A DNA stretch of 64,000 bases from Burkholderiaceae bacterium (GTDB lineage: Bacteria > Pseudomonadota > Gammaproteobacteria > Burkholderiales > Burkholderiaceae_E), in the NCBI GenBank assembly GCA_044355655.1, contig JBIKXS010000008.1, positions 23,054 to 87,053 on the forward strand, given 5' to 3'. The notes beneath the pieces were generated by a model, which saw nothing but the letters and a program-made list of their open reading frames with translations, did not search any database and was not told the DNA's origin. Shown here one piece after another: positions 22,713 to 63,771 of the stretch. Position 1 is the first letter of the stretch; every line of letters begins with the position of its first letter. The position numbers were made by a program, and so were the translations under genes.

Positions 22713-23405
22713 TTAGCCAACGAGAATGATATGAACCCGATAAGGGCCGTGGGCACCCATCACGAGGGTCTGTTCGATATCGGCAGTTCGAGAAGGACCG
22801 GAGACAAGATTCATTGCACGCGGGGGTTCGCCGTACTGATCGCGCATCAAGGCAAAAGCGTCCTCATAATGCGGGACGATACGCTCGACCGACAGCAGGG
22901 CAATATGAGTCTCAGGTAGTAAATGGGTTGAGGCAGGCGTCTGCGCCGACGATAAGAGCATGATCGTGCCTGTCTCGGCAATGCCAGCAAAAGCTCCTCC
23001 AAGCCCCACCAAGTCGTCGCCACGAGGCGCCCTAAACTCGATATCAAGCACCGGAAGATCTGGTGAATTCGTACTAAAGTCAATATGAGAAAAGCTAGGC
23101 CATGCAGCAACATGCAGACTTAACTGCCTCGCTGCTAAGTATCGGGCAATTGCTTGAGGAACTTCGGACTCACCAGGCACACGGTCAAAAGTGCTCCCCA
23201 TACGTTGCGCCTGCATACAAAAGTGCTCGACAACATCAGCACCAATGCTTGGCCCCAGACCCCGCGGGTGTTCGTGCAGGTAGGCATCGCGATCCCTCGT
23301 GCGAGCAAGATCGGCAGGCGAGCCTTTGGCCGGATCGCCATGGCCTTGCGCCTGACGAATGCGTCGAAGGATCGATTGTCGGGCAAGTGAGGTATCGGGA
23401 ATCAT
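22713..23405 (-). CDS. LUD-domain protein (LutC/YkgG-like)
   Basis: The ATG at 23405 ([21 protein letters not shown]) overlaps the pncB stop. The size and N-terminal motif resemble LutC-family proteins. No lutA or lutB genes are adjacent. Confidence 0.55.
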
Positions 23406-36302: not shown

Positions 36303-37049
36303 CTAACCCTTGACCGGCGCAGCCTCTTCCTTGAGCAAGCCATCCTTCATACGTTCGGCTTTTGCCACATCCTGCTCCGGAATCAAATCGCGCAAATTGC
36401 GCAAATGGTCCTTCGCGGTAATCACTCCCAGGTCTTCTGCAACCATAAACCAAGCATAGGCGCGCACAAGATCACGCGCTGTTACTCTTCCCGCGCGATA
36501 CATGGTGCCAAGGTTGAAAGCAGCAACCCCTGAACCATTTTTTGCAGCGGTCTTCCACCACTGAGCGGCCATGATCCCGTTGGGTTGCCCGTCAGCGCCG
36601 GCTTCGTAGTGAGCACCGAGCTCAACCTGCGCATCGACGTTTCCGCCCTTCGCAGCGCGGATAAACCAATTCCAAGCTTCTTCCTTGTCTTTAGCAACGC
36701 CAATGCCATTGTTGAACATCATTGCGACTTCGTATTGAGCCTTGAGATGCCCCTCCTTAGCAAGCTTAAAGAGCTTATTGAAGGCCTCCTCATGTCGCCC
36801 AGCCGCATAGGCCGAACGAGCATCGTTATAGTCTGAGCAAGCAACAAGAAAAGAGCAGCAAATCGCGACGAGCATCACGCAGCAGAGCTTGGGTATACGC
36901 GACGAGGCCCAGACGTCAACGACCCAATCCCGGAACAAACTGCTCACCGCAATTTGCAGCGATTTCGCAGAATCTCGAGTTTGCTTAGCCAGATGCCGCG
37001 GTGAATCGGCCTGGACAGTTTCGGTAGCTACCGGCTCGTTGCAGATCAC
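36303..37049 (-). CDS. Sel1-repeat protein, probable lipoprotein (MotX-like candidate)
   Basis: 248 aa maximum ORF with a GTG start overlapping the upstream stop. The hydrophobic segment ends in the lipobox-like FLVAC-S. It is followed by 3-4 Sel1 repeats (LAKEGHLKAQYEVAMMFNNGIGVAKDKEEAWNWFIRAAKGGNVDAQVELGAHYEAG...AAQWWKTAAKNGSGVAAFNLGTMYRAGRV..DLVRAYAWF). The true start may be an internal TTG or ATG near 36875-36940. Confidence 0.7.
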   Translation of the reverse strand: MICNEPVATETVQADSPRHLAKQTRDSAKSLQIAVSSLFRDWVVDVWASSRIPKLCCVMLVAICCSFLVACSDYNDARSAYAAGRHEEAFNKLFKLAKEGHLKAQYEVAMMFNNGIGVAKDKEEAWNWFIRAAKGGNVDAQVELGAHYEAGADGQPNGIMAAQWWKTAAKNGSGVAAFNLGTMYRAGRVTARDLVRAYAWFMVAEDLGVITAKDHLRNLRDLIPEQDVAKAERMKDGLLKEEAAPVKG

Positions 37050-37459
37050 ACGTTGGATGCGACTTTACCAGCCGCTGGCTTTGCCTCTGGCGCTGCAGGC
37101 GCTGAAGGGGATGCAGGCGCACCTGCTGCTTTAGCGGGCGAACCTGGTTTCGCGCCAGAGCCAGGTGTGTCCGAGGCACTGTAATTGGCACCCAAGAGAC
37201 TGCCTACGGTGCGGGTGTAGGAGCCAACCATGCGCCTTGTAAGATCGGGGTAGTGAGGTGCGCTTGGCAAATAACCCCGAACCTGCATGCACCCGGAAGG
37301 ATCCGGACAAACGCGGCAAACAGCTTCGGCTTCGAGACGACCGATCTCGAGTCGTTCACCAATCATGAACACGCCGCCCGCTGCAAAAATCGCAGCGCCA
37401 ATGACCTTGAATACCAACTTTGTCCAGTTGCCAAGGTATTGCATCACTTCCTTGATCAT
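37046..37459 (-). CDS. hypothetical single-pass membrane protein with an Ala/Pro-rich tail
   Basis: 137 aa with the TM helix LVFKVIGAAIFAAGGVFMIG, a CRVCPDPSGC motif and the tail PGSGAKPGSPAKAAGAPASPSAPAAPEAKPAAGK. It is translationally coupled to the downstream gene (GTGA overlap). Confidence 0.55.
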   Translation of the reverse strand: MIKEVMQYLGNWTKLVFKVIGAAIFAAGGVFMIGERLEIGRLEAEAVCRVCPDPSGCMQVRGYLPSAPHYPDLTRRMVGSYTRTVGSLLGANYSASDTPGSGAKPGSPAKAAGAPASPSAPAAPEAKPAAGKVASNV

Positions 37460-37486
37460 GATCGTTTCCTTACCTGTCTATACTCA

Positions 37487-38458
37487 TCAATGCGTTTTAC
37501 TTGAAGGCGATTTCGCCCGATCCTCTGCTGGACCAGGTACATTCCCCCACCCTACCGACTTCTCCAACAAGGCCGCAGTCTCCGAAGGTACACGCCACGG
37601 ATAATTAGGCTCGCGCGTTATTAGTTTTGCATAAAGTTCGACAATATACATGTGGTTCGAGGGCAAGAAACCACGCATCTTCCCGATCACTTGCGCAACC
37701 TCATCCTTGCGCCCTTCCTTCAAAAAACCAAGACCGGCGCATCGATAATATTCGGCAGCGCGCTTGATATCGGCATGCATGCCGTAGCCATGGGCGAGAA
37801 TCTCAGCAATCCGATCGCAGGCATCGGGCGAGCCTTTATCCGCAGGTGCTTGCAAGAACTTCGCGGCAGTGCGGAATTCCTCGGCACCAAAAGCAGTGAT
37901 TAGCATCGCTTCTTTACGAGACCCCAGATCATCCGAATTGAGTTCACCTCTATTCACCTGACGCCTCGCCAGTTCCATCGCAATCGTTCCACGCCAATAC
38001 CCGGCCTCCAAATCCCCTTTTTGTGCTCTTGCAGCAAGCCTATCGAGCAATTCGCGCCGTTGAACCATTAATTGAAGCACTTTTCGATCCGATGACAAAC
38101 ACTTAGGATCAAAAATACAAGCAGTTGCTTTTTCAGCCTGTTCGCTCAAACGCTGATAGGCCAGGGCTAACTCTTTCGAGCTACGAGCGTCGTCGTCTTT
38201 CGCGTCCTTAGCTTCTTTGCCGCCTTTTGAAGAAGCGGCTTTGGCAGTATTGGTTGAGGCTGGAGCCTTACCAGAGGGATCAGGAGTTAAAGCCTTGCCA
38301 GCGGAATCGGCGGTTGAAGCCTTGCCAGCAGGATCGGGGGCTACAGCCGTCGGGCTTGACGATGCAGCGCTATGCGATATGCCACTTAAGCAAAAGGCAA
38401 AACCAAAAACGATCGCCTGGAAAAACCAGGCGTGTAGGTGGCATGGCAAACGCCGCAT
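37487..38458 (-). CDS. secreted Sel1/TPR-like repeat protein
   Basis: 323 aa with the signal-like N-terminus WFFQAIVFGFAFCLSGISHSAA and a 3 x 27-bp repeat region (DPAGKASTADSAGKALTPDPSGKAP). It also has a Sel1-like unit, AAKFLQAPADKGSPDACDRIAEILAHGYGMHADIKRAAEYYRCA. It starts 3 nt after the motB stop. Confidence 0.6.
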   Translation of the reverse strand: MRRLPCHLHAWFFQAIVFGFAFCLSGISHSAASSSPTAVAPDPAGKASTADSAGKALTPDPSGKAPASTNTAKAASSKGGKEAKDAKDDDARSSKELALAYQRLSEQAEKATACIFDPKCLSSDRKVLQLMVQRRELLDRLAARAQKGDLEAGYWRGTIAMELARRQVNRGELNSDDLGSRKEAMLITAFGAEEFRTAAKFLQAPADKGSPDACDRIAEILAHGYGMHADIKRAAEYYRCAGLGFLKEGRKDEVAQVIGKMRGFLPSNHMYIVELYAKLITREPNYPWRVPSETAALLEKSVGWGNVPGPAEDRAKSPSSKTH

Positions 38459-38461
38459 CTG

Positions 38462-39766
38462 CTACCTCGAAGGCGGCGGAAGCGTTAGCCCAGGCGAACG
38501 CGCGCGCGAAGCGGATTGACCGTCCTGCGTGCTAGCGGGCGGCATTGCACGCGCAGGAGAAGCTGCAGGCGAGGAAACCATTGGCGCGCTCGCCCCACCA
38601 GGTACGGAGGAGCTCTGGCCGCTCGACTGGCCTGCGGCGGCGCCGCCTTGCGGCCCAGCTGGAGAGGCAGCACCAGGTGAACCTGCAGCGTTAGCGGGGG
38701 CTGCACTATCACCGCGCACGCCCTTACCGAGGAAAGAAGCCGCAGGAAACGCTGGCAGGGTGTCAACGATCTTTGGCATGGTTTCTTTGATCGCATTTTT
38801 CGGTGACCCTGGCGTGTTGGGGACCCAGGTTGCACCACCACCCGTTGAAGGAACCGACCCAGCAGGCTGCAATCCGCCCTGATTTTGGGGTTCAGTCTGC
38901 CCGCTTGCTTTCGCTGCGCCACGCGCATTCAGAATGGTAATCGAAATGCGCCTATTCATCGGATCATTGGGATCTTCAGGATTGAGCTTGACCGAATCGG
39001 CAAAGCCAACAACTTGAGAAACCCGCGCGCTTTCAAGGCCACCAGCAATCAACTCCCGGCGTGCTGCATTTGCTCGATCAGAAGACAGCTCCCAATTGGT
39101 ATAACCCGAGGCCGCCCCTGGAAAAGGTTTGCCGTCGGTATGGCCCTCAATCCTTAAGGGCTGGCCGCCACCCGCCAAAACCTTACCAATCACACGCATG
39201 AGCTTTTTGGCGTAATCAGGCATGCCCGCAGAACCGCTCTCAAACATAGGGCGATTTTTCTCGTCAACAATTTGGATCCTCAAACCATCGCTCGTAACAT
39301 CCATGAAGATCTGCTTTTGGTACTCCTCAAGCGATTTGTCGCCAGCGATTTGCGATTCGACATCCGCTCGCATTTCTTCAAGCTGACCCTTTTGCTTCGT
39401 GTTGTACTGCTCGTAGGCCTCGCTTTCCGACATCTTGCGTTGCACGCTGTTGGAATCGGCGCGCTGTTCCTGTCCTGAAGCCTTGGTGACGTTATCGCCA
39501 CCGCCTTTAACGATGCTTCGAGTGTCGCCAGAACCCTGCCCACCATCCATGGCAAGACGCAATGGGTTTTGGAAGTAAGCCGAGATACCTGCCAAATCGC
39601 CTGAGGTTGTTGAGCCAAGCACCCACATCAGCAAAAAGAAGGCCATCATCGCCGTCACGAAGTCTGCGTAGGCGATCTTCCATGCACCACCGTGCCCGCC
39701 GCCAACAACTTTCTTGACGCGCTTGACAACGATTGGTGCTAATTCTTTACCGGGTGCTGAAGCCAT
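38462..39766 (-). CDS. motB: flagellar motor stator protein MotB with a C-terminal low-complexity tail of about 150 aa
   Basis: 434 aa with GGAWKIAYADFVTAMMAFFLLMW (TM plus the conserved Asp) and an OmpA-like domain (IEGHTDGKPF...NWELSSDRANAARR...NRRISI). About 153 aa of G/A/S/P-rich sequence follow. Confidence 0.9.
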   Translation of the reverse strand: MASAPGKELAPIVVKRVKKVVGGGHGGAWKIAYADFVTAMMAFFLLMWVLGSTTSGDLAGISAYFQNPLRLAMDGGQGSGDTRSIVKGGGDNVTKASGQEQRADSNSVQRKMSESEAYEQYNTKQKGQLEEMRADVESQIAGDKSLEEYQKQIFMDVTSDGLRIQIVDEKNRPMFESGSAGMPDYAKKLMRVIGKVLAGGGQPLRIEGHTDGKPFPGAASGYTNWELSSDRANAARRELIAGGLESARVSQVVGFADSVKLNPEDPNDPMNRRISITILNARGAAKASGQTEPQNQGGLQPAGSVPSTGGGATWVPNTPGSPKNAIKETMPKIVDTLPAFPAASFLGKGVRGDSAAPANAAGSPGAASPAGPQGGAAAGQSSGQSSSVPGGASAPMVSSPAASPARAMPPASTQDGQSASRARSPGLTLPPPSR

Positions 39767-43326: not shown

Positions 43327-43722
43327 TCACCCACTAGTTGATGTAACGGTCGGAACGCTCTGGCTATTAAGGCGCTTGGCACCGGAAGCTGGGATGCCAT
43401 GAGTGAGATCGCGGTCACCTCTGGAAACATAACGAGATGCCTGTGCCTGACTAATTAGAGACTCAACCTGTTTCGTAAGACCCAACCCTCCCGCTTTGAC
43501 CAAGTACCCAGCTAGTGAATCATCAGCTATTTCTCGCCAACCTGACTCCGACTCTTGCTGCTCATTCAACCAGGAGGTTGAACGCGCATTAGACAAGAAT
43601 TGGCGAATCAGCAATGCCTCGAACTGCTGCGCCGCTTGCTTGACGGAACCACTAACTCGATCGGCGCCCTGTTTACTTCCTAGAGCGGCGACCCAAGGAT
43701 CAAAGGATGGAGGAGCGATCAT
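43327..43722 (-). CDS. flgJ: FlgJ-like rod-binding protein (single domain, no muramidase)
   Basis: 131 aa. AAQQFEALLIRQFLSNAR is the rod-binding-domain signature. There is no C-terminal glucosaminidase domain. Confidence 0.75.
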   Translation of the reverse strand: MIAPPSFDPWVAALGSKQGADRVSGSVKQAAQQFEALLIRQFLSNARSTSWLNEQQESESGWREIADDSLAGYLVKAGGLGLTKQVESLISQAQASRYVSRGDRDLTHGIPASGAKRLNSQSVPTVTSTSG

Positions 43723-49939: not shown

Positions 49940-50356
49940 CTATTGGTTGCCGGTGAGTGCAAGTCGCCGCGATGCGATCACACTATTGAGCATGGTCATC
50001 GCAGCTTCAGTACGGACCGCGTTGTCCGCGAAATGGGATCGCTCGGTTTCGACGTCTACGGTATTGCCATCGAGCGCCGGTTGCATCGGCATGCGGTATA
50101 ACAAAGCAGGCGCACCAGGCAACGACCCGCCTATACGATAGTGCCGATCATTACTCGCCGATAGTGGAAGTGCGTTTGAGTAAGCCGTGCCTTCAACTTG
50201 CTCGCGAAGCGCCTGAGAAAATAGAACATCCCTAGCTTTGTATCCAGGCGTATCTACATTCGCCATGTTGGACGCAAGAATTTGCTGCCTGTAGCCACGC
50301 ATCCGTAACGCGGCCTCAGAAAAGAATAAGGGGTCAAACTCAGGCACGAGATTCAT
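49940..50356 (-). CDS. flgB: flagellar basal-body rod protein FlgB
   Basis: The start is set to the ATG at 50356 (MNLVPEFDPLFF...ILASNMANVDTPGYKARD), which has a GGAG Shine-Dalgarno sequence 7 nt upstream. The longer 50404 ORF would contain the sigma54 promoter. Confidence 0.9.
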   Translation of the reverse strand: MNLVPEFDPLFFSEAALRMRGYRQQILASNMANVDTPGYKARDVLFSQALREQVEGTAYSNALPLSASNDRHYRIGGSLPGAPALLYRMPMQPALDGNTVDVETERSHFADNAVRTEAAMTMLNSVIASRRLALTGNQ

Positions 50357-50387
50357 GGAGACTCCAACTTTCGAACAAGATAGAAAT

Positions 50388-50403
50388 AGCAATCCTCGTG
50401 CCA
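50388..50403 (-). promoter_or_regulatory. sigma54 (-24/-12) promoter of the flgB operon
   Basis: The minus strand reads TGGCAC-GAGGA-TTGCT, a full match to TGGCAC-N5-TTGCW. The -12 element lies about 32 nt upstream of the flgB ATG. Confidence 0.8.
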
Positions 50404-50531
50404 ATCCGACAAACGGTATATTTAAATGGCCTCAACGGCCTAAACTAATTGAAAGGACAGGAGATAGTCATTGAGAACGGCAAGCGATGCCGAGCAGGCG
50501 AGCAGAGCGGCAATAAATGCCGGATGTTGAT

Positions 50532-52025
50532 TTAGGGCTTATTAGAACCGAGGCCAAGTACTGGGCGACCGTTAAGCGCTTGAAGCGGCCGCGCGCCCTC
50601 ACCGAGCAATCTTGACAGCTCAGTCCACTGAGCCTTGGGCAGCGTTAGCGACTGGTGAGCGAGCAGCCAAAGGACCGATTCAGTACAGGGGGGATAAGAA
50701 AGGGATCCGGTAAACAAGACAGCTGATTGCATCGGCATGGGAAGCAGTAATTGCGGATCCATTTGCATACCCATCCAACTCAACCTTTCAGTTGAATCAA
50801 AAGGGAATCGGCGAAGCAATGTTGAAATCGCTGGGTTTCTTTGTGCCTTAGCATCGATTTCGATAGGCACAGCGATGATCAACAGTCGGCTTCCCTGTCG
50901 ATGAATAAAATGAACTGCCCCAGCAGGTGCTTTTTCACCTACAAAGGGTTCACCAGGGAAACGAAACTGTATTGAGTCAAGCGAGAACATTTCGCCGCGA
51001 AACATGGATCGGGAATTGCCATCCAAGTGCGCTGTCCACAACGGCCCCTGGCGAGACCAACTAAATCCCTGCATTTGCCAAGTTAATGCTGGCAATGCTG
51101 GACCAGTTGCACCAACCACCTGTTGTTCGGCAATTGATGGCGGCGACTGAACTTTACCGGTTGAGCACATCGAATAAGACGGATCGAGTCTACCCCAGGC
51201 CTGTGGCCCTCGCGGTCCGGACCAATCCCAGGGTTGATGTTGACCGCTCATTGAACTTGAGTTCATGCCAGCATTCAGTGAAGCGTCGGCTGAACCTTTC
51301 GATCTGCCAGCAACATCTTTATCCTCGCCCACTGGTGATTGCTTAGAAGCGTCCGCACCAGGGCGCGTAGACGCACCCGCAGCATCATCGCCATCTTTTT
51401 GCTTTTCAGTCGTTTTAGTGGCAACAACGCGACCTTTACCCGGCGTCGTTTCTGACTTTCCCGTGGGCGTATCTGGGCTTACTCTCAGCACAACCTCACC
51501 GTCTTTGCCCAATTTGTCCTGCAAGAGTCCTCTAACTTTCTCCTCGAGTGGATCAACTGCCAAAGACTGCCCTTCGGCAGCTGGCGCGACACCCGATTTG
51601 GGTACCGCACCGGACTTTTGCACAGGCGGCGCACCGGGCATCACTTTCAAATCATTAATCGGTCGACCTGAAGGCGTTTGTGCAGCATCTGCTTTAGCGT
51701 CGACTGGCCGTACTCCGACAGCTTTAGCGTCGGCGGATTTTGTGTCAGCAGCTTTTGAAAGAGCCGGCTTTAGCTCAGGGGCTTTGGCATCAACAGGCTT
51801 TGCTTCAGCCTGCTTGTTGTCGGCCTGTCTGTTATCGGCCTGCTTGTTGTCTTTTGACTTCGAAACTAAGGCATCGCTCGGCTTTGCAATTGCTGGTTTT
51901 GCCGTCGGCTCAATTAACTTTGACTTCTCGGCTGGACTCGGACTGTCTGCCGCATAAACTGAAAAAGGGGTGGCTTGGAAAGTGGCCACACCAAGCAGCA
52001 GGCTTGCTGCAAGACGCTTATTCAT
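50532..52025 (-). CDS. secreted alpha-carbonic-anhydrase-fold protein with a degenerate zinc site and a long K/A/D/P-rich N-terminal region
   Basis: Signal peptide MNKRLAASLLLGVATFQATPFSVYA. About 250 aa of low complexity follow, including 15-bp DNA repeats encoding KQADNRQADNKQAE. The C-terminal ~230 aa show alpha-CA landmarks: WDWSGPRGPQAWGRL, MCSTGKVQSPPSI, GSLSYPPCTESVLWLL, RPLQALNGRPV. However, QFHFH is replaced by QFRFP. The ATG at 52025 is preferred over the GTG at 52043. Confidence 0.7.
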   Translation of the reverse strand: MNKRLAASLLLGVATFQATPFSVYAADSPSPAEKSKLIEPTAKPAIAKPSDALVSKSKDNKQADNRQADNKQAEAKPVDAKAPELKPALSKAADTKSADAKAVGVRPVDAKADAAQTPSGRPINDLKVMPGAPPVQKSGAVPKSGVAPAAEGQSLAVDPLEEKVRGLLQDKLGKDGEVVLRVSPDTPTGKSETTPGKGRVVATKTTEKQKDGDDAAGASTRPGADASKQSPVGEDKDVAGRSKGSADASLNAGMNSSSMSGQHQPWDWSGPRGPQAWGRLDPSYSMCSTGKVQSPPSIAEQQVVGATGPALPALTWQMQGFSWSRQGPLWTAHLDGNSRSMFRGEMFSLDSIQFRFPGEPFVGEKAPAGAVHFIHRQGSRLLIIAVPIEIDAKAQRNPAISTLLRRFPFDSTERLSWMGMQMDPQLLLPMPMQSAVLFTGSLSYPPCTESVLWLLAHQSLTLPKAQWTELSRLLGEGARPLQALNGRPVLGLGSNKP

Positions 52026-52066
52026 GAGCAGAAACCTTTGCACAAATTCATCAAGAACTGGCTAAA

Positions 52067-52942
52067 TCAGGGGCGCTTGACGGCGTCAGGCGGAACGGTC
52101 GGGCCACATGCACCTGGTATGGGACAGGCCCCAGTCATTTCGGGCGACTGGTTCGCGCTTGAGTTCGAGCCTGAGCGCGCTAGATTACTAGCTGCTGTGG
52201 GTTTCACATCCGCGGTACTCACGGCATTGCGCGGCCTGGGCTTAACAACCTGCTTGCCTGGCTTAATTGCTTCAAAGGGTTCCGGGGGCTGTTGTTGAAT
52301 TGCAATTGGCGCAGGTGGTGGGACGGGCGCAGTGATCGCCGGTGGTTTGGACTCAGCAACAGGTTGCGGTTGCGGCGCAAATCGGGCCGCACAAGTTGGT
52401 AAAGCGACCTGTGACTGGTTGACCCCAAAATCACCTGGCAAAACAGCCTGTACTGGGTCTTTTTCACCTGTCGTAACCATTGCAATCAAAGGGCTAAATA
52501 ATCCAGTTTGCCGAACTGGAAATTCAGGCTCAGGATCCAACTTTGCCTGACAGTCTGTCATCCGCTTGTCGATATCACGCCTTGACAGGAAGTAACCATC
52601 GCGAAGTAAATTCGCTGTCGTCTGAACACAGTTATGCCAAACCCAAATCTTGTCAGGAGCTGGGTACTTTAGCGCTTGAGCCGACTTCGCAAACCCTTCT
52701 GCGGAACAAGATAAGAATTCCCCTTCTGTCCTAAGCTGTTCACAAAACGTTCCCCTGGGCTTGTACTGCGCCCTGCAATCAAGACTAGCCCTGTCCCAGG
52801 CCTGCGCAACCGCAGCATTTCGATCCTTCAGCGTTGGCAAGGCAGGCAAGTCATCGATCCGGGGTAATTTGGGCATTGTTTCCAAGCATCCCGCTAGTAC
52901 CAATGCGAAGCCAACAACAAAAAGTCTACAAATAGTGCGCAT
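52067..52942 (-). CDS. hypothetical Cys-rich lipoprotein with a Pro-rich C-terminal half
   Basis: 291 aa with the lipobox VLAGC-LE, at least 9 further Cys residues and the tail QPQPVAESKPPAITAPVPPPAPIAIQQQPPEP.... It lies 20 nt after fliR and 24-42 nt before the CA-like gene. I recognise no family. Confidence 0.6.
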   Translation of the reverse strand: MRTICRLFVVGFALVLAGCLETMPKLPRIDDLPALPTLKDRNAAVAQAWDRASLDCRAQYKPRGTFCEQLRTEGEFLSCSAEGFAKSAQALKYPAPDKIWVWHNCVQTTANLLRDGYFLSRRDIDKRMTDCQAKLDPEPEFPVRQTGLFSPLIAMVTTGEKDPVQAVLPGDFGVNQSQVALPTCAARFAPQPQPVAESKPPAITAPVPPPAPIAIQQQPPEPFEAIKPGKQVVKPRPRNAVSTADVKPTAASNLARSGSNSSANQSPEMTGACPIPGACGPTVPPDAVKRP

Positions 52943-52962
52943 AACAATGCCCCACTGGAGGT

Positions 52963-53754
52963 TCAGTTTGACCCAAAAGCCATGCGAATAACCCCGTAGG
53001 CAGCTTCGAGTGAACGTTGCAGAGCCTCAGGAAACACGGGCAAGAGAATATAGATGAGGAATACACCAATTGGGATCGAAATGGCAAATCCAATCGAAAA
53101 AAGATTCATTTGCGGACTAGTGCGTCCCATGAATCCTTGAGCGGCCATCACGACAAGATTAATTGCTACGAAGGGAAGGGCTAAGATGAGACCGATCCCG
53201 AAACAAGTCGCCAACAATGTGGAGACCCCCCTCAACTCAAGCGCTTTGGGCCATTGGCCCGGCGGCAGCGCTCTGAATGATTCAAAAAGTATTTCAATGG
53301 CAACCAAATGAAGATTGAGTCCAAACATCAATGCTAAAGCAACGAGTCCAAACAAAGTACCCAGAACGCCTGAAGGTAATGCCTGATCCGGGTTGTAGTT
53401 GGACGCGAAAGACAAACCGGTTTGAATGCTTATCACTTCAGCAGCTACATCAAAAACGACTAACCCCACCCGAATCAACCAGCCCATAACTAGTCCGATT
53501 AACAGTTCTGTAGCCGCTAGGGCCATGAACCCACTTGTCGAGGTATTGATCGAAATGGTCGACAAAGCGCCGACCTGAATCGGAATTCCGAACGCAACGA
53601 CGAGCGCTAAGGCAACCCGAAAACGTGCGGGGATTGTTTGAAGCGCAAAAAAAGGCGCAGAAAGAAATAAGCCAATCACCCGTGTTCCGGCAAGGATCCC
53701 CGGCAAGAAGACAGTCTCAATTAATGTCTGAGGAATTGAAAGCATGGCAGACAA
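52963..53754 (-). CDS. fliR: flagellar export apparatus protein FliR
   Basis: 263 aa polytopic membrane protein in the position after fliQ, with the motif GLVMGW...ISIQTGLSFA. Confidence 0.9.
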   Translation of the reverse strand: MSAMLSIPQTLIETVFLPGILAGTRVIGLFLSAPFFALQTIPARFRVALALVVAFGIPIQVGALSTISINTSTSGFMALAATELLIGLVMGWLIRVGLVVFDVAAEVISIQTGLSFASNYNPDQALPSGVLGTLFGLVALALMFGLNLHLVAIEILFESFRALPPGQWPKALELRGVSTLLATCFGIGLILALPFVAINLVVMAAQGFMGRTSPQMNLFSIGFAISIPIGVFLIYILLPVFPEALQRSLEAAYGVIRMAFGSN

Positions 53755-53782
53755 GATCTTGGACCATCAATCAAAAAAGTAA

Positions 53783-54052
53783 TCATTGGGTCAAGGCGGG
53801 GATCCGCGCCAGCACATCCCGAACATAATCCACAAAAAGCGACAACATTGATGACCCACCAACGCCGATAATTAGGGCCGTTACGATCAACTTCGGAACA
53901 AAGGTTAGCGTCTGTTCGTTAACTGAAGTAGCCGCTTGCAAAACGCCGATAAGTAGTCCTAATGCGAGGATGCCCAGCAGAATTGGGCCAGACAGAAGTG
54001 CCATCATCAAAATCGCCCTGAGCACATGACCAACTATTTCACTACTATCCAT
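53783..54052 (-). CDS. fliQ: flagellar export apparatus protein FliQ
   Basis: 89 aa with LLSGPILLGILALGLLIGVLQAATSVNEQTLTFVPKL. Confidence 0.93.
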   Translation of the reverse strand: MDSSEIVGHVLRAILMMALLSGPILLGILALGLLIGVLQAATSVNEQTLTFVPKLIVTALIIGVGGSSMLSLFVDYVRDVLARIPALTQ

Positions 54053-54063
54053 GAGTTCTCTCG

Positions 54064-55110
54064 CTATGCGCTCATCTTGAAGCTATCCACTAAACCCCCG
54101 ATGAGCATGGCCCAGCCATCAGCCAAAACAAATACGATGAGCTTAAGCGGAAGCGCGAAAGTAATAGGAGAAACCATCACCATGCCAAGTGCAGTAAGGA
54201 TACTTGCAACGGCAAAATCAATCGCCAAAAAAGGTAGGTAAATCACGAAACCAATTAAGAATGCAGTCCTTATTTCACTGATTGCAAATGCTGGGATCAC
54301 GGTCGTCATGGGAACATCTTCGGGCTTCGCATAGGTTTTTCCCGAAAGCTTTACAAAAAGATTCAAATCATCGGCTCGTGTTTGACGCAACATGAAGCCC
54401 TTCACAGGTTCAATACCGCGATCAATCGCTTGTTCGAAGTTTATCCTGCCTGAAACGTAAGGCTGCCAAGCATCTGCGTAAACTTTTTCAGTCACCGGCG
54501 CCATAACAGCGGCCGTTATAAAAAGCGCAAGCCCAACGAGAACCGCGTTCGGAGGGGTTGTAACCAAACCCATCGCTTGCCGCAACAAAGAAAGTACAAT
54601 TAGGATTCGAGTGAAGCTCGTCATGAGCATGAGCATCGCTGGCAGAAAAGACAAGGCCGTTAGCAGAATGACCGTCTGGACCGGTACCGAGTAGTTCGTA
54701 CCCCCTCCTTTTGAGGGAACCGATTCAAACAATGGGATGTTTTGAGCTATTGCCTCAAGCGGTGCGGTTAATGCCAGACCACCAAAAATAAACAGAAGTA
54801 CTGTTACTAGGCGTAACCCACCCAGCCCGATCGATGCTAAACCTGCAGATTGCGCTGGCTTCATCTCTTCAGCGGTTGCATTTCGCCGATCAATCAACTG
54901 TATATGTTGACTCGTCACGCCAAGCACTAATACCTCTTCTCCCTGTAAGACCTCGACCAATCGCTCGCGGTGTCCGAGTGGAAGTGTCGACAGGATTCTT
55001 AGACTACTATGTGAGGGTATCCTGCGCCACGACCTGGCGATTATGCCAACCGCTAGTGCGACCAAGGCAACAAGCACTAGGAAAATTAGGCTCGCATTTG
55101 CCGTTTCCAT
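54064..55110 (-). CDS. fliP: FliO-FliP fusion protein (export apparatus)
   Basis: 348 aa in one open frame. Residues 1-80 resemble FliO: a TM helix plus LRILSTLPLGHRERLVEVLQGEEVLVLGVTSQHIQLI, compared with E. coli LKISASASLGARERVVVVDVEDARLVLGVTAGQINLL. From about residue 100 it is full-length FliP (signal-like LRLVTVLLFIFGGLALTAPLEAIA, then PVQTVILLTALSFLPAMLMLMTSFTRILIVLSLLRQA...). Confidence 0.85.
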   Translation of the reverse strand: METANASLIFLVLVALVALAVGIIARSWRRIPSHSSLRILSTLPLGHRERLVEVLQGEEVLVLGVTSQHIQLIDRRNATAEEMKPAQSAGLASIGLGGLRLVTVLLFIFGGLALTAPLEAIAQNIPLFESVPSKGGGTNYSVPVQTVILLTALSFLPAMLMLMTSFTRILIVLSLLRQAMGLVTTPPNAVLVGLALFITAAVMAPVTEKVYADAWQPYVSGRINFEQAIDRGIEPVKGFMLRQTRADDLNLFVKLSGKTYAKPEDVPMTTVIPAFAISEIRTAFLIGFVIYLPFLAIDFAVASILTALGMVMVSPITFALPLKLIVFVLADGWAMLIGGLVDSFKMSA

Positions 55111-59456: not shown

Positions 59457-60842
59457 TCAAGCGCTCACAATACCGAAAAGACCAACAAGGCATTCATCAA
59501 GGCCAAAAGTCTCATGCATGCCCTGCTGCAAAAACTTCTGGATATCTGGCCAAAGCCTTAATGCCTCATCAAGCCCAGGATCGCTGCCAGGGACATAAGC
59601 CCCCATTGCCACCAGATCGCGGCCACGCATGTAACGTGAAATCAATTGTTTTAGTTTACGCGCTGCTTCTTGATGCCGTTGATCAGTCACTCGCGGCATG
59701 ACGCGGGAAATCGACTTTTCAATATCGATGGCCGGATAGTGGCCCGAATCAGCAAGTTCGCGGGATAAAAACAAGTGCCCGTCGAGAATGCCTCGTGCGG
59801 TGTCAGCAACCGGGTCGTGGATATCGTCGCCTTCAAGCAGGATTGTGTAAAACGCGGTAATCGACGAATCAGGCACAGCCCCATTGCCAACCTTCTCGAC
59901 CAATTCAGGCATTTTGGCAAACACCGAAGGCGGGTAGCCACGCGAAACCGGTGGTTCGCCCAAAGAAAGCGCGATCTCTCGCTGCGCCATGGCAAAACGA
60001 GTGAGTGAGTCGATAATCAAGACCACATGCCTGCCCTGATCACGGAAAAAGGTTGCCACATCAGTTGCAAACAAGGCCCCGCGCAATCGCGCAAGAGGAC
60101 TTGCATCAGCGGGCGCGGCAACCACCACCGAACGCTGCAGCGCATCAGCCCCGAGTGTGTCTTCGCAAAACTCACGAACTTCGCGACCCCGTTCCCCAAC
60201 AAGACCGATTACCACGACATCGGCCACACAACGTCTTGCAAGCATCCCGAGCAATACCGATTTACCCACCCCGGAGCCTGCAAAAATGCCTACCCGCTGG
60301 CCCCGCCCGATGGTGAGCATTGAGTTGATCGAGCGTACCCCTGAATCAAGCGGTTGATGGATCGGCTGTCGATGCAGCGGGTTGATTGGCATCGAGCGGT
60401 AAGGATTGGGGGGCTCTGAGCCGGTTGGTTTGCCATCGAGCGCTCGACCGTAACCGTCAACCACCCTTCCCAATAAGGCATCGCCAATCGGCAGCGGCGG
60501 CGCGGACTCGATGGGAACAAAGCGCTTTCCCTCTTGGGCAGGAGTGTTAGCGGGGTAAACCGCGGCACCAGGCGCAACCCGATTTGCGGGATCGATCGGC
60601 ATGAGAAAGGTTGTATGACCCGAAAAGCCAACACATTCGCATTCGACCCACCCCGAGCCTGAAGCAACCGCGGCGCGATTGCCCATGGTCATTGGCAGGC
60701 CAGTTACTTCGAGCATGAGGCCCGAGACGCGCTCGAGCCGCCCACTACGAACACCGCGTGGTGCGGCCTGGATACGTGCCGTCCAGCCGCGAAGCCGCTT
60801 TGCGGCCTGCTCAGCTCGACTCGGCGAGATCTGCTGCATCAC
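59457..60842 (-). CDS. fliI: flagellum-specific ATPase FliI
   Basis: 461 aa with Walker A GSGVGKS, Walker B VVLIIDS and TAFYTILLEGDD. Confidence 0.95.
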   Translation of the reverse strand: MMQQISPSRAEQAAKRLRGWTARIQAAPRGVRSGRLERVSGLMLEVTGLPMTMGNRAAVASGSGWVECECVGFSGHTTFLMPIDPANRVAPGAAVYPANTPAQEGKRFVPIESAPPLPIGDALLGRVVDGYGRALDGKPTGSEPPNPYRSMPINPLHRQPIHQPLDSGVRSINSMLTIGRGQRVGIFAGSGVGKSVLLGMLARRCVADVVVIGLVGERGREVREFCEDTLGADALQRSVVVAAPADASPLARLRGALFATDVATFFRDQGRHVVLIIDSLTRFAMAQREIALSLGEPPVSRGYPPSVFAKMPELVEKVGNGAVPDSSITAFYTILLEGDDIHDPVADTARGILDGHLFLSRELADSGHYPAIDIEKSISRVMPRVTDQRHQEAARKLKQLISRYMRGRDLVAMGAYVPGSDPGLDEALRLWPDIQKFLQQGMHETFGLDECLVGLFGIVSA

Positions 60843-61503
60843 GGGTATTGACGGAATCGCGCGGCAGCAGGCCCATGGCCATGAGCACTAATGCGCGCCT
60901 TGCCTCTGGCCCCACATCGATTCGCGTGCCTTCAACCTCGATGTAAGCACCCGACTCCTGGTCTGCATCGGCAAGAATTTCCATCCGGAAGGGCAGGCTT
61001 GCCTTGGTGAGGAACTCTTCCCAAATTGCACGCTGTGCTGGCGGGACCCGCAACAAGAGGTTTTCACCTGGCGAGGGCAAACGCATTAAGGCCTCTTCAA
61101 CCGCATGCAGAAAAGGCGCGCGGTCGATGTGTTCGCCCAAGGAAAGACGCTCTGCGATCGACCATGCGAGATCTGTGATGGGTTCCAGAATCGTGTCTGG
61201 CAAGTCTTTAATTTCGTGAATAAAGACTTCGAGTGTTTGGGTGAGCTCAACAATCGAGTTTGTGTGCTCATCGTAGGCTTTGTCTCGCCCTTCCGCTAGC
61301 CCTTGCTCAAACCCCTGGGTGAAACCCTCACCCACACCTTTAGCAAAACCTTCTTCGCGACCCGCGTCAAAACCTTCTCTACGGGCTGCCTCACGGATCG
61401 CCTCGATTTCCTCAACGGTGGGCCAAACGATCTCTGGTTCTGGCTCCGGAATTGGCGGGTCAAAACTCGGCGGCAACCAACGTTGAGCAGCTGTTCGAAC
61501 CAT
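60811..61503 (-). CDS. fliH: flagellar assembly protein FliH
   Basis: 230 aa with the charged repeat region EGFDAGREEGFAKGVGEGFTQGFEQGLAEGRD and a C-terminal FliI-binding-type domain. It overlaps the fliI start by 32 nt. Confidence 0.8.
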   Translation of the reverse strand: MVRTAAQRWLPPSFDPPIPEPEPEIVWPTVEEIEAIREAARREGFDAGREEGFAKGVGEGFTQGFEQGLAEGRDKAYDEHTNSIVELTQTLEVFIHEIKDLPDTILEPITDLAWSIAERLSLGEHIDRAPFLHAVEEALMRLPSPGENLLLRVPPAQRAIWEEFLTKASLPFRMEILADADQESGAYIEVEGTRIDVGPEARRALVLMAMGLLPRDSVNTRDAADLAESS

Positions 61504-61574
61504 ACTTGCCTTAGCGTTGAAGTCTGGGCTTGCTGATTAGGTCTTGGCTAGCTGATGCGGTCTAGACTGGGCAA

Positions 61575-63494
61575 TTAAGCCAAGCCCTTTTCCACATCCT
61601 CTTGCAACCACTGCTTGAAGATCGCAGCGACCACCCTTGGATCCTTTTGTACGAACTCTTTGGCGTAGGCAAGCAGCTCTTCGTATTCGGCAGCCTTTTC
61701 CTCTTCTTCGCGTTTACGCTTGTCTTCAAGGATGCGACGTTCTTCTTCGAGGCGCTGACGCTCTTCCTCTTCTTGAATTCGACGACGCTCGCGTTCGAGT
61801 TCGAGTTCGAGACGGCGCTTTTCACGAGCAGCAGGCGACATGGCTTGCAACTCCGCTTTGACACGCTCATCAAACTCTTCCTCGATACGCTGCTCCTCTT
61901 CAACCACTTTAGGCGGTGGTGGGAAGAGGATCGGACGCACAAGAAAGACTGTGACTAAACCAAGAACCGTCGCAATAATCAGGAATTTGAAAAACTCCTT
62001 CATCACGCTTGCAAAGGTCGCCTGCTTCCAAAATGGCGGCTCATCAGATACTGGTGGCGAGAAGGGTATGCTGACGACGGACACCGAATCGCCGCGCTGC
62101 TGTGAAAAACCCATTGCATCACGCACAAGCGACGTCATTTGCTGGATTTCTTGCTGGGTGTAGGCCGTTTCCTTAACATTGCCTTCAGCGTCGGTGGTCT
62201 TTTTGTAATTCACAATCACCGCGCTTGATACACGCTTCACGCTGGCGCGCGGACCGCGCACTGTTTGGATGGCGCGATCGACCTCGTAGTTAACGGTTTG
62301 CTCTTTGCGGTTTGCGTTAGTTGATACAGGACTCTGAGTGCCGGGTGGCTGAGCCTGTCCCTGACCCGCCTGTCCTTCGATCGGCGCCTGCCCGCCCTGA
62401 GGTGGCTGATTGGTCAGCGCGCCAGGGATGCCACCAGCGCTTGTGACAGGACCGCTCGCCTCAAGGTTTTGCTGCGAGCGAATGCTCGCGGGGTTTTGCC
62501 CGGAGTTAGGCTTGAAAATTTCCTCGGCGCGCTCACTTTGGGTGAAGTCGACATCGACTGCTACCTGAGCGCGAACATTGTCGCGGCCTGTGATTGGCTC
62601 AAGAATTGTGACGATCCGACGCGCTACCTGATTTTCCACCTCACCCACATACTTGATCTGGGCTGCGTCCATGCCGCTTGCCCCGTTTTTGTTCGGGTTG
62701 GGCGCAAGCAGACCGCCATCGCTATCCACGACAGTGACCATCGCCGGCAGCAGTTGAGGGACCGACGAAGAAACCAAGTGGGTGATCGCCGTGGTTTGCT
62801 GGTCATCGACTACCCGCCCCGGATGCAGCGACAAGACCACGGAAGCAGTTGGCTTGGGCTGATCACGCAGGAAAGCGGAAGTCTTGGGAATCGCGAGGTG
62901 AACGCGCGCGTCGCGGACTTGCGCGAGGGTTTTTATCGAATTAGACAGCTCAGATTCAAGTGCCCGCTGGTAATTCACCTGTTCAACAAACTGAGACGTA
63001 CCAAGCTTTTGATTTTCAAGCACTTCAAAGCCAACATTGCCGGCTTTCGGAAGGCCTTGACCGGCGAGCTTGAGCCTGGCGTCATAAACCTTGTCGCCCG
63101 GCACCATGATTGCCCCACCACCCTCAGTGAATTTGTGGGGTACTTTCATTTGCTCAAGTGCCGCAACGATAGCGGCACCATCTTTGTCGTTCACATTTGA
63201 AAAAAGAACTTTGTAATCGTCTTTGCTATCACCTGACATCGCGACCAAAACCACTGTTACGGCCACAAGCAAGATAGATACGGCGAGCAAAAGCCTGCGC
63301 AAGGGTGAGAGTTCCCGAACACGATCAGCCACCTCTTCCCAACGCTCGGGAAGGGTTTTCGGACCGCCTGGACGGCTGATTCGTTCAACGCGTGGGGGTG
63401 CAACGTCTTCTTGCACGATGGCGTTAGGGTTGACCCCGATTACGGTCGCACCGTTTTCAGCTTGTGCTGCCAGTCCTGGATTAACGTCAGCCAT
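61575..63494 (-). CDS. fliF: flagellar MS-ring protein FliF
   Basis: The ATG at 63494 (MADVNPG...) is preferred; the maximum ORF extends to 63575. It has YKVLFSNVNDKDGAAIVAALEQMKVPHKF, a second TM, then a 115-aa cytoplasmic tail. The tail ends in KDPRVVAAIFKQWLQED, which corresponds to the Salmonella FliG-binding end NDPRVVALVIRQWMSND. Confidence 0.93.
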   Translation of the reverse strand: MADVNPGLAAQAENGATVIGVNPNAIVQEDVAPPRVERISRPGGPKTLPERWEEVADRVRELSPLRRLLLAVSILLVAVTVVLVAMSGDSKDDYKVLFSNVNDKDGAAIVAALEQMKVPHKFTEGGGAIMVPGDKVYDARLKLAGQGLPKAGNVGFEVLENQKLGTSQFVEQVNYQRALESELSNSIKTLAQVRDARVHLAIPKTSAFLRDQPKPTASVVLSLHPGRVVDDQQTTAITHLVSSSVPQLLPAMVTVVDSDGGLLAPNPNKNGASGMDAAQIKYVGEVENQVARRIVTILEPITGRDNVRAQVAVDVDFTQSERAEEIFKPNSGQNPASIRSQQNLEASGPVTSAGGIPGALTNQPPQGGQAPIEGQAGQGQAQPPGTQSPVSTNANRKEQTVNYEVDRAIQTVRGPRASVKRVSSAVIVNYKKTTDAEGNVKETAYTQQEIQQMTSLVRDAMGFSQQRGDSVSVVSIPFSPPVSDEPPFWKQATFASVMKEFFKFLIIATVLGLVTVFLVRPILFPPPPKVVEEEQRIEEEFDERVKAELQAMSPAAREKRRLELELERERRRIQEEEERQRLEEERRILEDKRKREEEEKAAEYEELLAYAKEFVQKDPRVVAAIFKQWLQEDVEKGLA

Positions 63495-63771
63495 GAGATT
63501 CAGTGTAAATTGAACAAAGTTAGACCCCAAACCAAAGCAAGGAACTTTTTGCCGGCGCAAAGCGTCGACGGGCAAATTATTCCTGTCTCGAGACTCTAAG
63601 CTGCCTCATTGGGGAGCGTATGCGACTTTGGTGGGAGGCAGAAATCCAACTAATTGCGCCATGCCACGATAAATTGGTCGTTAAATGGAAACAACGGCAA
63701 TATGGTGCCATGCTCGGTTATAAGCGGTAGCAACTTATGACCAAACAATCAAAGGTAGGTATCTTGCGCAT

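Follow-up and report, generated by a model that had tools for sequence, protein, structure and literature searches.

What is a protein with the look of a carbonic anhydrase (CA) doing in a flagellar gene cluster? The 64,000-nucleotide stretch of DNA analysed here (positions 23,054 to 87,053 of contig JBIKXS010000008.1, assembly GCA_044355655.1 of a Burkholderiaceae bacterium; called the window below and numbered from its own first nucleotide) carries a gene at 50532..52025 on the minus strand whose 497-residue product (plus stop) ends in a domain that an earlier note, made by eye, had compared to alpha-class CAs and considered catalytically dead. We call this gene psCA, for pseudo-carbonic-anhydrase. 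The same note placed it between fliR and flgB, and there it lies, although not alone: a gene for a 291-residue orphan lipoprotein (52067..52942, minus strand), which the note had missed, precedes it. The locus therefore raises two questions, whether the protein is still an enzyme and whether it belongs to the flagellum. To the first, comparison of sequences establishes psCA as a predicted Sec-exported, disulfide-bonded CA-fold pseudoenzyme that is under purifying selection. To the second, synteny suggests a flagellar role for psCA, structural or sensing, in which it and the lipoprotein would act jointly with each other and with the flagellum. Coordinates of genes and protein features in the window are on the minus strand throughout.

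The carbonic-anhydrase fold, its lost zinc site and the linker

The psCA open reading frame (ORF) starts with ATG, and an alternative GTG at 52043 would lengthen the product by six residues; since homologues begin at the same MNKR or MKKR, the coordinates first proposed for it are right, and its translation contains all of the peptides that had been quoted from it. The G+C content at the locus is unremarkable. The product has three parts. Residues 1–26 (51948..52025; MNKRLAASLLLGVATFQATPFSVYA, followed by AD), read from the sequence as a Sec-type signal peptide and conserved in our alignment of 27 full-length homologues (A1), show a basic n-region, a hydrophobic core, a V-Y-A cleavage motif (cut between VYA and AD) and, in the AlphaFold model, a helix at residues 5–16. 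Residues 27–262 (51240..51947) form a linker rich in K, A, D and P that is predicted to be disordered (predicted local distance difference test score, pLDDT, below 50 except in one helix), and residues 263–497 (50535..51239) form the alpha-CA-fold domain with the disulfide pair Cys287/Cys447.

Membership of this C-terminal domain in the alpha-CA superfamily follows from sequence and predicted fold alike. The Pfam profile Carb_anhydrase (PF00194) matches residues 274–489, scoring 45.6 bits (E 8.6e-12) where the cut-off is 27, and in a phmmer search of the PDB residues 256–490 match the Neisseria gonorrhoeae alpha-CA (8dpc) with E 2e-23, a dozen bacterial alpha-CAs scoring similarly. The AlphaFold model, made from 28 family sequences, has a pLDDT of about 90 in the CA domain, and Foldseek matches this domain to bacterial alpha-CAs with E about 1e-19 and a target-normalised template modelling (TM) score of 0.80. 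The homology to CA is confirmed and lies far above chance, so the likeness that had been drawn by eye holds up under both a hidden Markov model search and structure prediction. Bacterial periplasmic alpha-CAs (those of N. gonorrhoeae, 1KOP/8DPC; Thermovibrio, TaCA, 4C3T; and Photobacterium, PprCA, 5HPJ) share with psCA the Pfam family, the fold and the motifs QSP, GSLxxPPCxE and RPxQ, as well as their two hallmarks, a signal peptide (in psCA read from the sequence) and a conserved disulfide (its two Cys being invariant in A1). Unlike them, however, psCA has no zinc triad and no proton-shuttle His, and the equivalents of Thr199 and Thr200 are replaced.

The register of the active-site residues was taken from HMMER and MAFFT alignments and from an hmmalign census of 36 family representatives. 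In the HMMER alignment to 8dpc, in MAFFT and in the census, Gln353-Phe354-Arg355 (codons at 50961..50969) stand in place of His94-Phe95-His96, so that zinc ligand His94 is Gln353 and zinc ligand His96 is Arg355, and the third ligand, His119, is kept as His372. Glu106 is kept as Glu359, and His107 is Pro360, Glu117 is Ala370, the proton shuttle His64 is Pro328, and Thr199/Thr200 are Ser443/Tyr444; Cys287 and Cys447 correspond to the disulfide pair of the active enzymes. Neither the three-His triad nor the proton shuttle nor the Thr199/Glu106 gatekeeper pair is thus present. The earlier note had counted two of the three His ligands as lost, and formal alignment does not restore them, but its register was off by one: having aligned QFHFH with QFRFP, it named Arg and Pro as the replacements, and this Pro is the one normally conserved in HxPxE. 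Its statement that the proton-shuttle His and the Thr-Thr gatekeeper are gone agrees with the alignments. The third His and the disulfide, which it reported as kept, are indeed kept in the window protein, although the third His is not universal in the family, where divergent members have Gln, Ala, Leu or Ile in its place. No representative in the census has a His/His/His triad (0/36); 31 of the 36 have Gln/Arg/His, two have Gln/Tyr/Leu, and Gln/Arg/Gln, Glu/Arg/Ile and Gln/Arg/Ala occur once each, and the equivalent of Glu106 is retained in nearly all family members. By these counts the loss of the zinc site is fixed across the whole psCA family. The exact psCA protein is already in public collections, where JGI labels it 'carbonic anhydrase', and family members in public databases are labelled either so or 'hypothetical'; the former annotation is probably wrong.

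Is the gene then decaying? Nei-Gojobori ratios of nonsynonymous to synonymous substitution (dN/dS), calculated against two close psCA alleles (95% and 81% identical), are 0.14–0.16 for the CA domain and 0.18–0.46 for the linker, with 0.10 for the lipoprotein and 0.015–0.03 for FlgB. Because dN/dS is about 0.15, the gene is maintained and not decaying. The best-conserved blocks of the CA domain are those that lined the former active site, namely residues 324–334 (SRQGPLWTAHL), 351–364 (SIQFRFPGEPFVGE) and 438–452 (FTGSLSYPPCTESVL). Since a new set of invariant residues has taken the place of the catalytic one, this conservation argues that the former active-site pocket is still a functional surface of psCA.

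The linker, roughly 235 residues long in psCA and 173 to 244 in orthologues, is mildly basic (isoelectric point about 9) and less conserved than the CA domain, with a median identity to the window protein of 46% vs 63%. It had been described as consisting of repeats, which overstates the case, since the sole tandem repeat is one of 15 nucleotides in 2.9 copies at 51808–51851; it is merely of low complexity and predicted to be disordered. It carries three conserved motifs. Motif 1 (residues 34–58, EKSKLIEPTAKPAIAKPSDALVSKS, 51852..51926) has a conserved block at residues 44–54 and a core around PAIAKPSDALV, and the form KPI..KP.I..P(V/S)(E/D) is recognisable in the most divergent members. Motif 2 (residues 116–130, QTPSGRPINDLKVMP, 51636..51680; QTPxGRPINDLKV), with G120, R121, I123 and D125 invariant in A1, is unrecognisable in those members. 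Motif 3 (residues 157–190, DPLEEKVRGLLQDKLGKDGEVVLRVSPDTPTGK, 51456..51557; DPLEEKVRxLLQDKLGKDGEVVLRVSPDTP) has invariant residues and, alone within the linker, is structured, with a helix (residues 159–172, pLDDT about 69) and then a probable strand. Motifs 1 and 3 can still be made out in members that are only 24–27% identical overall to the window protein. The N-terminal 262 residues of psCA have no Pfam match. A by-eye resemblance of motif 3 to the N-terminus of E. coli FlgA was dropped when a motif-3 profile (A4) searched against the PDB found no FlgA up to E 10.

Proteins with a CA fold in which at least one zinc-ligand His is replaced are known as CA-related pseudoenzymes, and psCA is one by this definition. 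In the CA-related proteins (CARPs) VIII, X and XI and in the CA domains of receptor-type protein tyrosine phosphatases (RPTPs) gamma and zeta, the zinc-ligand His residues are often replaced by Arg or Gln, and these eukaryotic domains, which like psCA keep the fold without the zinc His, are used as protein-binding modules. Direct phmmer matches of psCA to such proteins are weak (2w2j, E 6e-5; 3s97, 3jxf and 3jxh, E about 2e-3 to 6e-3), and psCA differs from CARPs in being bacterial and periplasmic, with another domain architecture and genomic context. The inactive CA-fold domain of poxvirus D8 binds chondroitin sulfate; the psCA model matches D8/OPG105 in Foldseek (E about 1e-11, 10–18% sequence identity), but D8 is, unlike psCA, a membrane protein of eukaryotic viruses with no relation to motility. 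Because the best matches outside the family are active bacterial CAs, the loss of the zinc site in psCA is convergent with that in metazoan and viral pseudo-CAs, and we find no common descent with them. Our literature search brought up no description of bacterial CA-related pseudoenzymes and, in line with the earlier note, no CA-fold protein described as a flagellar component. Its sole match joining 'carbonic anhydrase' to motility, Vibrio fischeri can, was set aside, as it concerns a growth defect of a beta-CA.

The flagellar locus, the partner lipoprotein and the range of the family

The flagellar genes of the window run, in minus-strand order, fliF, fliH, fliI, fliJ, fliK, fliL, fliM, fliN, a fused fliO-fliP, fliQ and fliR, then the lipoprotein ORF, psCA, flgB, flgC, flgD, flgE, flgF, flgG, flgH and flgI, and then a 131-residue ORF in the flgJ position, flgK, flgL, motA, motB, two Sel1-like ORFs and flhB. 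The pair thus lies between fliR (52963..53754; Pfam Bac_export_1, E 2.7e-51; TIGR01400), the last core gene of the fliL-fliR export-gate operon, and flgB (49940..50356; 138 residues; TIGR01396, E 3.8e-26), the first gene of the rod/hook operon. The same-strand gaps are short, 20 nucleotides from fliR to the lipoprotein gene and 41 from there to psCA, and neither gap contains a sigma54 or sigma70 promoter match. Between the psCA stop and the flgB ATG, by contrast, lies a sigma54 −24/−12 element, TGGCACgaggaTTGC (50389..50403), which is an exact match and the only exact sigma54 match in the 64-kb window, so that psCA sits directly upstream of the sigma54 flgB promoter as had been proposed. Of 34 distinct related loci, 24 have this element between psCA and flgB according to the regular expression GGCA[CT]-N5-TTGC; in seven of the ten loci without a match, among them one that is identical to the window (L024), the spacer had been shortened by an extended flgB query and was hence unscored. 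Given the spacing and the absence of promoter matches in the two gaps, the lipoprotein-psCA pair looks like the tail of the fliL-fliR transcription unit; judged by the sequence, the pair would be co-transcribed with that unit and flgB would open a new sigma54 operon.

Two minor features of this region may be added here. The true start of flgB is the ATG at 50356, which is preceded by GGAG and gives a protein of 138 residues as in homologues, and a mechanical ORF list begins the gene at a TTG (50404), so that the added stretch (50357–50404) overlaps the sigma54 promoter. Right after the psCA stop is a 5-bp GC-rich hairpin (CGGCA-ATAAA-TGCCG, 50508–50522) that is not accompanied by a coding-strand U-tract; it may terminate transcription weakly or stabilise the RNA at the end of the fliL-psCA unit. 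A terminator scan from fliR to flgB gave matches no more frequent than in shuffled sequences.

This gene order is kept in all of the psCA loci collected, as far as their flanks extend. Loci were gathered by four routes (psCA homologues, lipoprotein homologues down to 45% identity, the exact FliN, and FliF). Among the 53 that have psCA, all 49 with room upstream show the lipoprotein gene immediately before it on the same strand, and all 45 with room downstream show flgB immediately after it. The order fliR, lipoprotein, psCA, flgB includes members in which psCA is only 24–27% identical to the window protein. Across relatives, therefore, psCA is encoded within, and co-oriented with, flagellar operons, which answers the question, raised with the first description of the gene, of where its orthologues sit. 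Synonymous divergence along the locus is strongly mosaic. Synonymous sites are saturated between some loci, and over window positions 50532–54052 the proportions of synonymous differences (pS) relative to two related loci (L026 / L027) are about 0.8 / 0.8 for fliQ and fliR, 0.54 / 0.09 for the lipoprotein gene, 0.13 / 0.27 for psCA and about 0.2 / 0.2 for flgB. Such a mosaic points to homologous recombination between lineages inside the flagellar cluster.

The partner gene was defined from its ORF, from 53 homologues (alignment A5), all of them labelled 'hypothetical', and from an AlphaFold model. Its product has a LAGC lipobox followed by Leu, a confidently predicted four-helix bundle with six invariant Cys residues, a variable Pro-rich linker and the invariant C-terminal motif ACPIPGACGPxVPxDAV. 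Since the residue at +2, next to the lipid-modified Cys, is not Asp, the outer membrane is the likeliest anchor. The lipoprotein matches no Pfam or NCBIfam family, and Foldseek finds nothing below E 0.9 for its fold in the PDB. Every lipoprotein homologue examined has a CA gene next to it, inside the flagellar cluster.

The family has a narrow range. When 1.84 billion representatives were searched exhaustively with a profile, 8257 CA-family matches came up, among which the full-length psCA architecture occurs in only about a dozen 50%-identity clusters. Its bearers are a clade of uncultured freshwater betaproteobacteria met with very often in lake metagenomes: its exact FliN sequence is indexed in 1199 collection blocks and on 650 contigs, and the window is 100% identical over twenty compared flagellar genes to contigs from JGI 3300044731 and ENA ERZ27272075. 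A scan of GTDB genomes found four family loci only, all on short contigs of metagenome-assembled genomes (the other five matches, L005–L009, are unrelated CA genes outside flagellar loci). Three of the four (L001, L003 and L004) are binned as Terrimicrobiaceae, Nanopelagicales and Steroidobacteraceae and are almost certainly mis-binned, since their flagellar genes are 79–100% identical to the betaproteobacterial window.

Where might such a protein have come from? The best profile matches after the family itself are CAs of 360–430 residues from Comamonadaceae (Rhodoferax, Curvibacter, Hylemonella), which keep intact NNGH, QFHFHxPxE, HLVH and SLTTPPC motifs; in the Comamonadaceae-type set the His triad is kept in 106 of 119 sequences. 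Like psCA they are extended at the N-terminus, and the extension contains a helix-strand motif similar to motif 3 (for example ADPLEHLRERLTEKLG or LEKLRKLLEGG...TVKVKV), but psCA has a much longer linker and two additional conserved motifs. With hmmsearch, motif 3 matched nothing in the CA extensions at E 0.01 or better and gave 40 weak matches vs 11 in shuffled controls, so homology between the two is suggestive only. The most likely source of psCA, judged by these sequences, would be the periplasmic, N-terminally extended CAs of Comamonadaceae-type Burkholderiales. The sole Comamonadaceae-type relative whose context was examined, P0119, has the same Gln/Arg/His triad as psCA and lies between ruvB and ruvA, not near flagellar genes. 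Among the nearest 50%-identity representatives, 34 of 99 lack at least one zinc ligand, in many different ways, and loss of the zinc site is thus recurrent in bacterial alpha-CA-like proteins. Ligand losses outside flagellar loci were seen in L028 (8001–9188) and L008 (5964–6605) and in P0119, P0124, P0130, P0131, P0133, P0136, P0137, P0140 and P0145, and a CA-like gene of Oligoflexales carries Met at position 94 and Arg at position 96. Among these lineages with a lost zinc site the psCA lineage is set apart by its genomic context, its partner and its long motif-bearing linker.

Possible roles of the gene pair

The reading that we favour, at about even chances by our own estimate, is that psCA is a co-opted dead enzyme that would serve the flagellar envelope apparatus as a binding module. 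In one freshwater betaproteobacterial clade, the end of the fliL-fliR operon would have taken in psCA along with the gene of a Cys-rich lipoprotein. Both products would be exported by Sec, the lipoprotein being anchored in a membrane, most likely the outer one, and psCA serving as a periplasmic adaptor whose flexible linker of roughly 235 residues would carry three conserved short docking motifs. The remodelled funnel of the CA domain (Trp268, Gln353, Arg355, Glu359, His372, Ser443 and Tyr/His444) would bind a protein or envelope ligand and not catalyse; the position of the best-conserved blocks at the former active site lends indirect support to such a module for binding ligands or proteins. 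As it would be produced along with the export gate and ahead of the rod and rings, the pair may be a lineage-specific assembly factor or a scaffold of the basal body or of its passage through the envelope. That psCA and the lipoprotein go further and build a new ring, cage or tether on the basal body, periplasmic or tethered to the outer membrane, is a more tentative proposal that we think possible but doubtful.

Precedents for such an addition can be found in other rotary machines. In the Campylobacter jejuni motor the medial disk is formed by PflC, an HtrA-family protein without its catalytic triad (PMC12222027), and the co-option of psCA would be analogous to that of this pseudo-protease: in both cases a periplasmic enzyme fold minus its catalytic residues would serve as a lineage-specific scaffold of a rotary machine. 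A looser parallel is PorK, reported to be a repurposed formylglycine-generating enzyme (FGE) fold in the PorKN ring of the type IX secretion system (PMC12421860). The folds of PflC (HtrA protease) and PorK (FGE) differ from that of psCA, and PflC has been placed in the motor by in-situ cryo-electron microscopy, whereas a place for psCA there is suggested by gene position. The pair is also like FlgP, FlgT, MotX/MotY, PflA/PflB and FlgY in being linked to flagellar operons, Sec-exported and lineage-restricted, some of those proteins being lipoproteins as well; by Pfam, NCBIfam and PDB profile and fold comparison, however, neither psCA nor the lipoprotein has homology to FlgA, FlgP, FlgT, MotX/Y, PflA-D or FlgY.

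Several points weigh against a flagellar function of psCA, and most of them speak at the same time for its main rival, that these are passenger genes: the pair would serve a general envelope function, such as the binding or buffering of an anion or cell-wall ligand, in a gap between two flagellar operons where it is tolerated, and its order would be kept by descent in a young clade. All of the loci belong to one narrow clade, with FliM and FliN 93–100% identical across loci, so the conserved order could be inheritance and not coupling. The closest pseudo-CA relative is the non-flagellar P0119, from which it follows that loss of catalysis (Gln/Arg/His) is not tied to flagella, and many CA-like proteins of bacteria that are not flagellar have repeatedly lost zinc ligands as well. 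Neither psCA nor the lipoprotein resembles a known flagellar component in Pfam or NCBIfam, nor does the lipoprotein fold do so in the PDB. Together with FliK (39–47% identical across loci), psCA evolves fastest in the cluster (27–50%, with a median of 63% for the CA domain alone), compared with 78–96% for FlgB/FlgC, 48–75% for FlgE and 45–72% for the lipoprotein, which would also suit a loosely constrained passenger. The mosaic of synonymous divergence shows that psCA and the lipoprotein gene are able to recombine independently. Finally, any flagellar contact or phenotype of psCA is suggested only indirectly, by the position of its gene, and the AlphaFold models here cover single proteins and are silent on complexes. 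Nonetheless, there are no exceptions to the gene order in 53 loci despite saturated synonymous sites between members, the same-strand gaps to fliR are tight and contain no promoter match for the pair itself, and both genes are confined to this locus, each lipoprotein homologue examined preceding a CA gene in the cluster. We consider it unlikely that the pair is a mere passenger.

Three further explanations appear to us less likely than either a flagellar adaptor or scaffold or a pair of passengers. psCA could be a periplasmic sensor whose pocket, with Arg355 in place of zinc, binds bicarbonate, CO2 or a small anion and so modulates the motor or stator. In favour of this, conservation within the domain peaks in the segments that line the pocket, the Arg and Gln at the former metal site vary little or not at all, and a location beside motor genes fits; Arg355 and His372 are nonetheless replaced in some divergent members (Gln/Tyr/Leu and Glu/Arg/Ile), psCA has no output domain or known signalling partner, and a long linker with docking motifs points to tethering over signalling, all of which makes a sensor improbable. 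It is very improbable that psCA remains an enzyme with another chemistry or metal site, for example an esterase or hydrolase that opens the cell wall for the rod. Purifying selection on the pocket residues and the retention of Glu106 (Glu359) in nearly all members would suit an enzyme, and since the flgJ-position ORF has only 131 residues a separate wall-opening activity is needed; against this, no plausible catalytic constellation exists family-wide (the third His, Arg355 and a PGEP motif are lost in divergent members), psCA matches no other enzyme family in Pfam or NCBIfam, and to our knowledge no CA fold has glycosidase or peptidase activity. That psCA functionally replaces FlgA, the P-ring chaperone, seems to us the most improbable of the readings. 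The pair occupies the usual position of flgA, upstream of flgB, and neither the window nor the 10 kb upstream of fliF shows a flgA gene, but flgA may simply be elsewhere in the genome; psCA has no Pfam ChapFlgA or SAF match, its motif-3 profile retrieved no FlgA structure, and stretches similar to motif 3 occur in the N-terminal extensions of ordinary CAs.

If psCA and the lipoprotein do build such a structure on the basal body, psCA would be the first CA-fold component of a bacterial flagellum and, after PflC, the second independent case of a periplasmic enzyme that was disarmed and recruited as a motor scaffold. Flagellar motors diversify by adding periplasmic parts, and few such recruitments have a traceable ancestor; here both ends of the process can be seen, an active periplasmic CA from related Burkholderiales as plausible ancestor and a disarmed, relocated copy, and a true flagellar role would make the locus a clean case study of a molecular machine gaining a part. 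The functional claim is limited in that it rests on synteny in one uncultured clade; it would surprise specialists in flagellar evolution or CAs. Neither the alpha-CA superfamily nor the idea of a pseudo-CA is new, and the novelty lies in the bacterial, flagellum-linked and lipoprotein-paired form: CA-related pseudoenzymes, until now a topic for animals and poxviruses, exist in bacteria too. The probable misannotation as 'carbonic anhydrase' also matters for metagenomic inference on carbon handling in lakes, where the clade is common.

Other features of the cluster and of related sequences

The flagellar cluster has several further peculiarities. The genes fliO and fliP are apparently fused in a 348-residue ORF (54064–55110), homologues of which, identical or near-identical to the window ORF, bear both PF04347 (FliO) and PF00813 (FliP). 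In the region around fliF (60811–63575 in the window; 1–7000 in L030), fliH comes straight after fliF and fliG is missing from between the two. Upstream of fliF is a divergent unit of fliE, a histidine kinase and a sigma54 response regulator, and beyond it lie a second FliK-like gene and a 111-residue gene resembling the C-terminus of FlhB. Like flgA, fliG was found neither in the window nor within 10 kb upstream of fliF, and no flhA or flagellin gene turned up within reach of the cluster.

The ORF in the flgJ position (43327–43722) has no Pfam match and no hydrolase domain, and it contains the string FEALLIRQFL, which we take to resemble a rod-binding motif. Because this ORF is short and without a hydrolase domain, the wall-opening enzyme of this flagellum must be encoded elsewhere. 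Farther on (36303–39766), MotB is unusually long (434 residues) and is followed by a 323-residue ORF with a weak Sel1 match, a 248-residue Sel1-repeat protein and flhB; the long MotB and the two Sel1-like ORFs are candidates for further lineage-specific periplasmic parts of the motor.

Rfam and tRNA scans of the window gave no matches, and the remainder of it is housekeeping, with an extracytoplasmic function (ECF) sigma factor together with DUF3619 and DUF3106 genes, clpB, thrC, hom, dnaB, rplI and others. Among the CA-family proteins collected are giants of 1283–3007 residues with 4–12 tandem, apparently intact CA domains (P0084, P0086, P0090, P0093, P0095, P0110 and P0116), some of which have a C-terminal transmembrane tail and whose source is probably eukaryotic.

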